Positions 30,805-63,582 of a DNA stretch of 64,000 nucleotides are shown here, one piece after another (positions within the stretch are counted from its first letter, which is position 1; each line of letters starts with the position of its first letter). This DNA comes from Eledone cirrhosa (taxonomy: Eukaryota), in assembly GCA_964016885.1 (NCBI GenBank), contig OZ024743.1:235538001-235602000 (forward strand), in the 5' to 3' direction. Position numbers and translations under genes: made by a program. The notes beneath the pieces are model-generated. The model did no database searches and had not been told where the DNA came from. It worked only from the letters and a program-made list of their open reading frames with translations.

Positions 30805-31307
30805 ACATATTTGTGTGTGTGTGTAATTGTGTGTTTATGAGTGTGTGTGCACGTGTGTATGTCTGTATGCCTGTGTGTGTGTGTGGGCGTGCTTATGCAG
30901 ATTGTGCAAGTGGGATTAACTGGTTTTAGTTTAGTTAGGATTGTAGAGATAAGGAATATTCAAGGGAGAGAAGTCATATTGAATTATATTTCTCAGTCTT
31001 AATACAAGATGTCTCACGCTTCACTTAACACAAATCCAGCCTCGGCCATATTCTCTAAGATAATCCACTATAAGACCTCTCCATACATGTGTGTACCCCA
31101 CATGTACACTCAAACTGTGTGTGTTTATATGTGTGTGTGTATGTGAGTGTGTGTGTGCGTGTGTGTGAGTATGTGTGTGCGTGTGTACATCAATCTAAAA
31201 AACAATCTTAGTTATTAAATGTTTCATTATTGGCAGTGCCACAGCATGGCATCAGCCTCTCGGCTGGAACACATGATAGTGTAATAGAGTAATATTACTC
31301 CAGTTCG

Positions 31308-55880: not shown

Positions 55881-56085
55881 GCAATCAGCTTTTCAGCATT
55901 CATAGATAAAAGGCTTTCCTTCCAAATGTTTATTCATAAACATACCATATATCATTAGATATACGAAATTCACATACTTATTTGTATACAGCTATGTGTG
56001 AGCAGAAACTTTAATATGCATATATATATATATATAAAATATTATAAAAAGGAATAATAGATACAATATACCAATTTTTCTTAAG

Positions 56086-56176
56086 TCCCGACTGTACAGT
56101 TTCGCTGGTCACAATGCAAGAATGCTATATCATAGATATACAATATTGTTGTGAGGTAAGCCAGCTTATCAAGAGA
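56086..56176 (-). ncRNA. Hammerhead ribozyme, U3-A8 variant core
   Basis: Minus strand tctc-TTGATAA-gctgg...ccagc-GAAA-ctgtacag-TC-ggga. Confidence 0.7.
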
Positions 56177-56413
56177 GCACCTCAGGGAAGAGCCCTAACT
56201 ACATACGTCCGTAGCATGCGAGAACATCTCAGAAAGTCGGAGGGAGACTCTATCACGTGATACACCGGTCAAGAAAGGGGATTAATCCCTTGTAGCAGTG
56301 AAAATATCTCAGAAGGCAGAGGGAGATATTGATATGATAGAGTCCCCCTCCGCCTTTCTGAGATTTTCTCGCATGCTACGGGCGTATGTAGTTAGGGCTC
56401 TTCCCTGAGGTGC

Positions 56414-56504
56414 TCTCTTGATAAGCTGGCTTACCTCACAACAATGTTACATATCTATGATATAACATTTTTGCATAGTGACCAGCGAAACTGTACAGTC
56501 GGGA
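56414..56504 (+). ncRNA. Hammerhead ribozyme, U3-A8 variant core
   Basis: tctc(56414)-TTGATAA(56418-24)-gctgg...ccagc-GAAA(56487-90)-ctgtacag-TC(56499-500)-ggga; GUC triplet; palindromic helix III ACTGTACAGT. Confidence 0.7.
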
Positions 56505-56757
56505 CTAAAGAAAAAAATAGGTATATTGTATCTATTATTCCTTTTTATAATATTTTACATAACTCTGATGTGTCAATTTAATTATTTCGATTATTTTGTC
56601 TCTCATAATCATAGAGTAACACTGGTTAAGGTCGACAACATACAATCTCACATACTTGTGAAAAATATATGTTTATATATACATGTATATGTATGTATAC
56701 ACATATATTTGTATACCTCTCATTAATGTATAACCACAGACCCTCCATCTCAACTCA

Positions 56758-56795
56758 CCTTTTGAAAAGCAGAAGAACTGCGAAACCGGTAAAGG
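56758..56795 (+). ncRNA. Minimal hammerhead motif, U3-A8 variant core
   Basis: cctt-TTGAAAA-gcag-aagaa-ctgc-GAAA-ccgg-TA-aagg, followed by AATAAA. Confidence 0.6.
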
Positions 56796-56926
56796 AACCA
56801 AATAAATATATATATTTAAAAAAAAAATAAGACTTCAGTTGCATTTTCGATTTCATCTCTTTTTCTTTATACTTTCACTCGTGTAGGACACCTCGGTTAT
56901 TTTTCATTTTGTAAAAAAAACCTCAC

Positions 56927-56964
<38 letters not shown>

Positions 56965-57226
56965 GATTTCGCTTCAAGCATAGCGTTATACAAATATGTA
57001 TAGAAATTTCGTACACATACACGCACACACATATATATATATACTGTATATATATATGCACACCATGTATATATATATATAACCAAAGATTAATATGATT
57101 CAATGATTACTCAATGAATATAGTTTTACAATAGATTAAAAGCACTCGACAGTAAAAGTTTTCTGGAGTTAGTAATATTATTCGAAATATTAATAAATGA
57201 ATACGTTCACATAATCAAAATATATG

Positions 57227-57288
57227 TTTTATTATATATATTTCGGAGGTACTGTGCTGTTTTTTCAGTACGCCCTCATCAGATAAAA
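57227..57288 (-). ncRNA. Minimal hammerhead ribozyme, canonical core CUGAUGA
   Basis: Minus strand ttttat-CTGATGA-gggcgtactg...cagtacctcc-GAAA-tatata-TA-ataaaa. Confidence 0.8.
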
Positions 57289-57412
57289 TATATGAATTGA
57301 TGTGTGACATACCTCAACTATCTTGATGGTTCAATTCCAGTATTGACAGTACTGCCAAGACTGGAATTGAACCATCAAGACCGTTGAGGTATGTCACACA
57401 TCAATTCATGTA

Positions 57413-57474
57413 TTTTATCTGACGAGGGCGTACTGAAAAAACAGCACAGTACCTCCGAAATATATATAATAAAA
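57413..57474 (+). ncRNA. Minimal hammerhead ribozyme, canonical core CUGACGA
   Basis: ttttat-CTGACGA(57419-25)-gg.gtactg...cagtac.cc-GAAA(57457-60)-tatata-TA-ataaaa; 6-bp helix I. Confidence 0.8.
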
Positions 57475-57520
57475 CATATATTTTGATTATGTGAACGTAT
57501 TCATTTATTAATATTTTGAA

Positions 57521-57538
57521 TAATATATATATATATAC

Positions 57539-57589
<51 letters not shown>

Positions 57590-61251: not shown

Positions 61252-62300
61252 GGTTTCTTAAATAATGTATTTTATTTGTCCTTCCTTTTTGGAGGGCCTC
61301 TATCCTGTAGATTGGCCAGCTAACTATATTAATAGCTATAGGCTCTATCAAGAAAGTGGTTTAGATTTGTAAAACCGAAACTGCATTTGTAACCCCGGAA
61401 AATAGTATTTTTTGTGCCAGTTTCTGTTTTTGTTTATTTACTACCTTCACTAAGTTTCAGTATATTTAAAGCCCGTTTATCAGCTTAAACCTATATCCAC
61501 ATAGCCTAAATAAATTTAACAAAATAGCAGTGTTGCCTTAGAAATTAGCATAATCAGCTAATTGTTGCCCAATATAACAAACCTGAAAGAAACTCTTTTT
61601 ATATTTTCCACTTCTCAGAAGAAACAAATCAGTTTTTCTACCTTTTCTCTTATCTTTCTCGAATCTAAAGTCTTAGAAAAAATTCTCAGTTAACTTTTCG
61701 ATTTAATCTTCCTATTTTCGCGTTAATTCTCTTTCTGAAGAATAGAAAGCACAAAACAAAAGTAATGCTTCTTTGAAGCAGGTAAAAGTCTTAATAAGAT
61801 CCAACTCAGTAACTACTCTGACGATTCTTTCTTCTAAAACTAATCAATATATTTAGTCGTCATTACAGAAGAAATGTAAATAGACTTAAAAATACAATTT
61901 TGACTTCCATTTTTATTTTATCAAGAGAATGTATCAGGAGAAACTATCACAGAGGAAATGAAAGATTTTCACTTAAAAGAGCGGCACAGATCTTGAGGTT
62001 TTTAAAACTAACAATCAAAACTCTCTGTTTGTGTGTGTGTGTGTGTGTGTGTAGGTGTGTGGGTGGGTGTGTATTGGTATGTGTGTGGGGGGGGTATGTG
62101 TGTGTGTAAGGGGATGCATGTCAATATATGTATATATATGAATGCGTATGAGTAAGATTGTGTATGTGTACACATGTGTATGACTGTATGTGTGTGTATG
62201 TAAATGTGTGGCTATATGTATGTGTATATGTGTGTATGTGTGTGTGTGTGTGGGGGGGTGTATGTGTGTGTGAGAGGATGCATGTCTGTATATGGATATA

Positions 62301-63196
62301 CGAGGTGTGTCAGAAAAGTTCCAGGGCTGATGTCACAAAAGATTTATTTCAAACCCAAACTTCACACTAAGAGTTTTCTCCTTCAAAGTAATCCCCCTGG
62401 AGTCTAATGCACTTTTCTATCCTTTTCTGTCATGCTTGCATGCACTCCTGGAAGGATTCTTCCGGGATCCTCCGTAGTTCCGTCGTCACGGCCTTTTTGA
62501 TGTCGTCCACGTCTTTAAAACGGGTCCCCTCCGGGTCGTACTCGAAGATCCATGACTCATCACCAGTGATGACTGTCCCTAGCAAGTCTGGTTCGGTTTC
62601 AAGACGCTCGAGGAGGTCCTGGCACACTTGCATGTGTCGACCCTTCTGGTCATCGTTCAGGAGTTTTGGCACCATCTTCGCGCAGACTTTCCGCTTGTCT
62701 AAATCTTCAGTGAGAATCTTCCAGACGCTGTCCCGATTCATGTCCAGCTGATTTGCCATCAGTCGAACAGTCAGCCGACGATCGCTACGCACCATCTGCC
62801 TGACGCTCTCAACGTTGACCTCAGTCCTGGTTGTTGAGAGCCTTCCGCTCCTGGGGTCGTCTTCCACGTCCTCGCGTCCTTCTTTAAACCTCTTGCACCA
62901 CTCAAAAACACGCGAGAGTGACATCGTCTCATCTCCATACACTTGCTGCAGCAATCCCAGTGCTTCTGACGGAGTTTTCAAGTTTGTTCGTTGCTCTGTG
63001 CTCATTGCTTGACGACCTGAAACAGAGGACATGTATATAAAATTATGAAGAAAAAAGTTTGATCGCTGCAGAGAGCTAAGATTACAGTTACATACTCCAG
63101 GGGGATTATTTTGAAGGAGAAAACTTTTAGTGTGAAGTTTGGGTTTGAAATAAATCTTTTGTGACATCAGTCCTGGAACTTTTCTGACACACCTCG
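62301..63196 (-). mobile_element. Internally deleted mariner (Tc1/mariner) transposon with ~103-bp inverted ends and TA TSD
   Basis: ta|cgaggtgtgtcagaaaagttcc...ggaacttttctgacacacctcg|ta; transposase HTH (VFEWCKRFKEGREDVEDDPRSGR), KMVPKLL, first catalytic D (ITGDESW) then a jump to C-terminal GTRFKDVDDIKK. Confidence 0.93.
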
Positions 63197-63582
63197 TATA
63201 TGTATGCATATTACTAAGCTTGTGCATGTGTACACATGTGTATGATTGTATGTGTGTGTATGTGTGTGTGTGTGTGGGGGGGGTATGTATATGTGTGTAT
63301 GTGTGTGGGGTGTCCGTATGTGTGTGTGAAGGGATGCATGTCTGTATGTGTGTATGTGTATGGATGTGTGTGGGTGTGTATGGATGGTAGTATATGTATA
63401 TATAAGTGTGTATATGTGTGCATATGAGTAAGCTTGTATATGTGTACTTGTTGATATACAAATCTGTATATGTTTATATATATATATATATATGAAATAT
63501 GCATGTATACGTATGTGTGGGCATGTCTGTATGGGGTGTGTATATATATATATGTTATATATATATATATATATATATATTA

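Follow-up and report, generated by a model that had tools for sequence, protein, structure and literature searches.

A palindromic pair of hammerhead motifs in Eledone cirrhosa left by a Penelope-like retrotransposon of the Hydra clade

Within a 64,000-nucleotide stretch of Eledone cirrhosa DNA (hereafter the window; contig OZ024743.1, positions 235,538,001 to 235,602,000), a palindrome carries one hammerhead motif on each strand, and by sequence comparison it represents the minimal form in which a Penelope-like retrotransposon (PLE) of the Hydra clade is inserted. We propose, at a probability of about 0.62, that this promoter-less insertion was made by twin priming at two reverse-transcription start sites, followed by run-off at the predicted transcription start site (TSS). 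The layout itself has already been published, as the available portions of PMC8557442, PMC3846280 and PMC4209133 show, and the palindrome is a new family member rather than a new kind of element. What is new here is the position of the centre at the initiator A behind a TATA box, the rule by which a long arm is joined to a short one, and the lack of ends at the ribozyme cut site. Taken by itself the palindrome is unremarkable: the genome contains about 1,300 such stumps, and the class of retrotransposon is known. Its value lies in the data. How PLEs form inverted pLTRs and tails is still treated as open in those parts of PMC3846280, PMC8557442 and PMC11167929 that were at hand, and the family supplies natural products by the thousand, in which two ends are fixed and the 5′ limit falls sharply at a position defined by TATA box and initiator. 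It further yields a specific, testable model that joins an in-vitro result of two start sites with the genomic layout.

Geometry of the unit and its centre

The inverted repeat consists of two arms of 176 nt each, at 57175–57350 (minus strand) and 57351–57526 (plus strand), which are 96% complementary and separated by a spacer of 0 nt; the seven mismatches lie 5, 9, 31, 32, 60, 73 and 167 nt from the centre and are mostly family polymorphisms. The spacer-less 352-bp palindrome described in the earlier note is thus real. Its reported extent, 57175–57526, was right for the palindromic part and missed both the flanking (TA)n and a one-sided tail: the left arm extends a further ~93 nt, to about 57082, before it meets (TA)n, whereas on the right (TA)n borders the arm itself. 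The whole unit, larger than the bare palindrome and asymmetric, begins with the (TA)n target run of the long end (57068–57081), followed by the tail (57082–57174, minus strand), which comprises ~93 nt of the element 5′ UTR, is present on the long arm only and ends at a site denoted L (~+269), which resembles a reverse-transcription start site. The long arm follows, representing +1 to +176 of the element RNA from the centre outwards; beyond the centre (57350/57351), the short arm represents +1 to about +173–176 and ends at a second site of this kind, S, before the (TA)n target run of the short end (57527–57584). In full-length copies, the tail sequence also precedes the start of the ORF. A TATA box is absent from the unit (57068–57584), from which we predict that it is silent unless read through.

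The centre falls on A(+1) of a conserved initiator-like motif, TCA(+1)CT, on each arm, and on the basis of promoter motifs we predict that this base is the TSS of the element. In copies that read through the position, the first arm base is the A of TCACT; in 18 arms, picked by their TATA/TCACT pattern from 23 read-through arms and belonging to several subfamilies with differing spacer sequences, a TATA box starts 31–33 nt before +1. Breakpoints were scored in 63 arms, a sample that comes from one chromosome arm, was chosen by the exact core pattern and includes segmental duplicates; 23 of these arms read through the promoter and 40 break. Half of the breakpoints (20/40) lie at −2 to +4, nine of them exactly at +1; the remaining breakpoints are spread downstream, except for three between −4 and −18 and one, at L115, that was mis-scored at −39 through a TA match. 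A distribution cut off sharply on the upstream side and drawn out downstream would be expected from run-off at the 5′ end of the RNA and subsequent trimming. The position of the centre at the predicted TSS suggests that each half was probably copied on its own, one from either cut end of the target DNA. A TATA box plus TCACT has been described in a rotifer pLTR, along with an inverted pLTR that is 37 bp shorter than the full one (PMC3846280). The reading of such centres as TSS run-off was not found stated in the literature searched, coverage of which was incomplete, for example for older Penelope promoter work. Moreover, a search for other copies with the same centre, as the earlier note had advised, returned 13 loci that match a 28-nt centre pattern, with none in the control.

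A Penelope-like family of the Hydra clade

A genome search with the arm returned 1,637 candidates, 40 of which were scored, and an 18-nt core pattern had 11,299 exact matches in the genome (0 in the control). Head-to-head core pairs total about 1,300, with at least one locus falling in two gap bins: 392 pairs have gaps of 79–109 nt, 781 of 110–140 nt and 134 of 141–171 nt, and exact +1/+1 joins yield core gaps of 126–134. The genome consequently holds more than 1,000 near-perfect hairpin templates, which could putatively give dsRNA if read through. Around RT hits, both ends of the element were present in 4 of the 16 stretches taken. Full-length copies (L193, L192, L198 and L202) display a TATA box, +1, ACTRCC, the hammerhead, S, L, an ATG near +325 and RRVRWR; SDKT occurs in L193, L192, L198, L199 and others, and DKA in L202. 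Downstream in the family ORFs lie YRDD, CNCx5C and YIG, these three in most full-length copies, and CxxC..E..N..CxH, with motif letters such as CNCRRKSEC or CNCRNRPDC and NCNLCNLET...INKK...CLH. In L193, L192, L198 and L202 the terminal repeat is linked to an ORF with RT and a GIY-YIG endonuclease (EN), and the hammerhead lies inside the family pLTR. The description of the structure as an inverted Penelope-type end was therefore borne out, in that full-length family copies carry a Hydra-clade RT/GIY-YIG ORF.

The translated family ORFs carry stops or frameshifts; a Pfam search returned no significant family for three ORF fragments, and the assignment rests on motifs and on printed Hydra proteins. 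A C-terminal EN of GIY-YIG type, the CxCx5C linker, the DKT motif, the lack of CCHH and the (TA)n insertion target are Hydra-clade traits found in the family and, together with a canonical hammerhead, are listed for the clade in the available text of PMC8557442. The CxxC/CxH around E and N is a further such trait, and RWR stands at the place that matches the Hydra-clade RWK, a conservative change. Judged by eye, the likeness to the printed Hydra-1_Obim protein (PMC8557442) runs motif by motif; compared with that element as presented there, ours has RWR for RWK, another hammerhead sequence and a longer 3′ UTR, and is a different family. Assignment to Naiad was rejected, given that the EN of the family is C-terminal. 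A non-LTR retrozyme was likewise rejected: such elements are described, in the accessible part of 10.64898/2026.07.22.740005, as monomers repeated in tandem, head to tail, with a type I hammerhead in every one, whereas the present unit is head-to-head and its family has its own ORF. Because an RT search of the genome returned 25,521 candidates, Hydra-type PLEs are, as far as such matches indicate, very abundant in it. At L049:3355–4908 (minus strand), another PLE family of Hydra type is open over 517 aa.

Head-to-head inverted ends, a palindromic junction and a tail at one end are all shared with EN+ PLE insertions as described in the sections of PMC3846280 and PMC8557442 available to us; in contrast to those, the unit in the window has no element body and a tail of ~93 nt, and breakpoints in its family pile up at the initiator A.

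Two fixed 3′ ends and the origin of the inverted arms

We analysed 56 stretches from C1, namely the first exact-core matches, as far as 37 Mb, and two additional palindromes. Among the 95 element pieces in them, 45 end at S, 38 at L and 12 elsewhere. No piece (0/95) has either of its ends within 6 nt of the ribozyme cut site, even though that site is a 9-nt (AT) run, and ribozyme-cut RNA as the template was rejected on this ground. Arm types were then compared in 29 distinct head-to-head pairs, drawn from all loci collected by that stage: 25 join a long to a short arm, that is, an inverted 5′-truncated copy with a one-sided tail, one joins short to short, none joins long to long, and three are unclassified (p~8e-7). 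S also terminates copies that carry the element body, and in full-length copies both S (~+173) and L (~+269) fall on AUAU-like letters, which could pair with a cut (TA)n. The tail between them measures 104 nt as defined by alignment (~93 nt without TA), compared with the 30–40 nt reported for other PLEs. Furthermore, inverted pieces that do not overlap were found at L084, L091, L098, L070 and L130/L132 (the last being one duplicated event), and in all of them the long piece covers only sequence beyond S.

In the mechanism that we propose, the endonuclease would cut both strands within (TA)n; one cut end would prime reverse transcription at L and the other at S through AUAU microhomology, and both cDNAs of the 5′ UTR would run off at +1. 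End-joining with trimming and a short snap-back fill would then seal the head-to-head centre. That the two arms are mutual nearest neighbours in 15 of the 29 pairs suggests that the pair of cDNAs generally derives from one RNA, through strand displacement, or from one source locus; arm similarity is also expected from fold-back or from arm-to-arm conversion. In L1 twin priming, two primers meet on one RNA. The non-overlapping pieces beyond S fit two primers meeting in this way and cannot be self-copies. In vitro, a purified PLE protein cuts both strands of AT-rich DNA and extends each of them; the tail is delimited by two internal sites where reverse transcription begins, and hammerhead cleavage is dispensable (PMC11167929). 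This TPRT system, PAc from Anolis Poseidon, has in common with our model the two start sites, the extension of both strands and the dispensable cleavage; it belongs to a different clade, and inverted pLTRs and run-off at the RNA 5′ end are not among the topics of the available part of that paper. In a broader form, which we put forward tentatively and at slightly less than an even chance, the inverted pLTRs of PLEs would be double strong-stop products, primed by both target strands on the 5′ UTR of one RNA, whose centre maps the TSS, formed without an antisense template or fold-back, with TA-to-TA recopying of finished palindromes. Several findings count against twin run-off. Snap-back pieces of the first ~9–40 nt are present at L093, L098, L099, L108 and L117, indicating that fold-back synthesis does occur locally; the window arms are not mutual nearest neighbours (rank 3), the tail is longer than in other PLEs, and the TSS is motif-based.

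The main rival to twin priming is fold-back, in which a cDNA started at L would have reached +1, folded onto itself and served as its own template up to S, an idea related to the self-priming on an antisense template by which PMC3846280 explains palindromes. The zero spacer at the centre, the 15 pairs of mutually nearest arms and the snap-back pieces at five junctions all agree with it, yet the self-copy would have to stop exactly at S, which is the end of body-carrying copies too, after skipping a better (AT) microhomology at +110 to +118 where none of the 95 pieces ends, and the non-overlapping long and short pieces cannot have arisen by self-copying. The earlier note had favoured fold-back priming for the second arm; in view of the two fixed arm ends and the non-overlapping inverted arms at some loci, we regard this origin as unlikely, and what fits fold-back is confined to the short pieces at the junctions. 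The window unit may itself be a second-hand copy, which is compatible with twin priming as the origin of the first copy. Apart from the window, just two loci, both on C574, carry its long-arm haplotype; these sisters share with it the junction and five arm-specific variants, and in unrelated flanks the TA-to-TA unit alone is common to them, for which reason segmental duplication of the three loci was rejected. Three other repeated junctions tested proved to be segmental duplicates, flanks included. Given the junction and arm-specific variants in common with the C574 loci, the finished unit was probably copied at a later time from TA to TA, at the RNA or the DNA level, or was spread by conversion; the routes would be RT acting in trans on read-through RNA, TA-to-TA copying in DNA repair, or non-allelic conversion that overwrote another palindrome. 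Re-mobilisation at the RNA level, as a non-autonomous element, is improbable: the copies number no more than three, copying of DNA accounts for them just as well, and a +47 variant present on both window arms only points to conversion.

Two further explanations have very little probability. Viroids and ambisense-ribozyme circular RNAs carry one hammerhead per polarity within a rod, the two ribozymes being distinct and part of a circular replicon. The earlier note saw a viroid-like hallmark in the opposite-polarity hammerheads of the predicted rod, which an integrated RNA of this type, or a purpose-built dsRNA/ribozyme switch, would share. Here the rod is built from inverted DNA copies instead of distinct sequences, and the hallmark is left without support: both ribozymes are copies of one motif in one retrotransposon 5′ UTR, no monomer repeat ends at the cleavage sites (again, 0/95 genomic pieces begin or stop less than 7 nt from the cut), the promoter is missing, and ~1,300 similar stumps have variable junctions. 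Spacer-less palindromes can also arise as chimeras, and a fold-back chimeric read could have introduced this one during assembly. Against such an artefact, which we consider scarcely credible, stand the seven arm mismatches together with the one-sided tail, the recurrence of the junction at two other loci, and short-read contigs of 57 and 56 nt that cross the centre without differences; these contigs reach 30+27 and 30+26 nt around the centre, below the 31/31 bridging rule, and derive from one sample, possibly the assembled one. Reads placed at 95% identity were mostly from other family copies.

An ADAR origin of the arm differences was rejected, as at most two of the seven, assessed by hand, fit A-to-G on plus-strand RNA, and one of these two is a common family variant. 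In one of the sister palindromes, a ~33-bp satellite of 6.8 kb (L078; G000:C574:125913–132767) adjoins and truncates the long arm. A further inverted match of ~600 nt lies next to a family palindrome in L206/L207 (~1707–2301).

Hammerhead motifs and neighbouring repeats

The long arm contains a type I hammerhead at 57227–57288 (minus strand; core CUGAUGA, C3 at 57282, predicted cut 57233/57232) and the short arm another at 57413–57474 (plus strand; core CUGACGA, C3 at 57419, predicted cut 57468/57469). Each reads outwards from the centre as CUGAYGA, GAAA, a helix III of only 2 bp with the palindromic loop AUAU, the cleavage triplet AUA and a 6-bp helix I (UUUUAU/AUAAAA); the CUGANGA, GAAA, NUH and three helices of type I hammerheads are all present. 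Stem II comprises G10.1–C11.1, one G·U, one C×C mismatch and six more pairs. The claim of an intact hammerhead on each strand holds for the core letters, found on both strands; as cleaving ribozymes the two are putative. The AUA triplet was found in 48 of 51 scored arms, nine of 60 having been dropped for anchor misfit. In an alignment of 30 copies (the two window arms and 28 chosen from the arms scored for the triplet), 97.2% of 599 cells are paired in the hammerhead structure, against 32–52% when it is slid. All changes among the 30 copies are one-sided, none being a two-sided compensatory change in the hammerhead fold, and shuffles score as well as the real fold in this pairing test; the pairing thus reflects conservation and is not proof of covariation.

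Rfam yielded 0 hits at the gathering score and no hammerhead among 52 matches at E≤10. In folds of 76-nt and 106-nt pieces, stem II formed and the full hammerhead did not. The minimum-energy fold of the short-arm RNA (+1 to +176) already contains helices I and II, and the full hammerhead fold is predicted to lie 3.5 kcal/mol above the minimum in the short arm and 5.0–5.6 kcal/mol above it in the long arm. The read-through hairpin has a computed energy of −264.7 kcal/mol, against −28.7 kcal/mol for the short-arm RNA held in the hammerhead fold; these energies predict that the ribozyme is masked within the hairpin, in agreement with the self-silencing that the earlier note had envisaged. RNAalifold, applied to the 30 copies, gave a different helix that covers the catalytic core. 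In alignment A1 (columns 7–52; window ~57389–57433), a conserved upstream stretch can pair over the core and the 5′ side of stem II; its 12 pairs are nearly all retained in 30 copies, none of them compensatory, and the helix may be an off-state fold that competes with distal helix I.

The hammerheads are likely passengers in the template that need a dimer or protein help. Low, dimer-dependent activity has been reported for such motifs, as have dual hammerheads on opposite strands, 100–700 bp apart, in Schistosoma PLE remnants (PMC4209133). Like the PLE hammerheads covered in the available part of that paper, those in the window are of type I, with a short palindromic helix III and predicted dimeric action; unlike them, they retain a helix I of 6 bp, for which a distal extension is predicted, and lack an additional nucleotide ahead of helix II.

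Another pair of hammerheads arranged head-to-head, belonging to an unrelated family, lies at 56040–56730 with arms of 181 nt. Its hammerhead has the core UUGAUAA, a stem II of GCUGG/CCAGC with a long loop, and GAAAC-UGUACA-GUC; the UUGAUAA-type U3–A8 variant is named in PMC4209133. The family has 1,263 genome candidates; its copies stop at either of two fixed 3′ sites, near query positions ~227 and ~398, and tandem units of ~580 nt occur (L184), which makes it look retrozyme-like. Between the two palindromes, at 56735–56935, is a third repeat ending in (TA)n, other copies of which have an inverted partial partner (1–201 with 1–137), again with a long and a short end. The window additionally contains a 32-bp satellite at 31307–54150, with 713 copies and 92% matches. 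At 62296–63201 lies an internally deleted element with terminal inverted repeats of 108 nt and, on the minus strand, a transposase fragment that we take from its motifs to be mariner-like.
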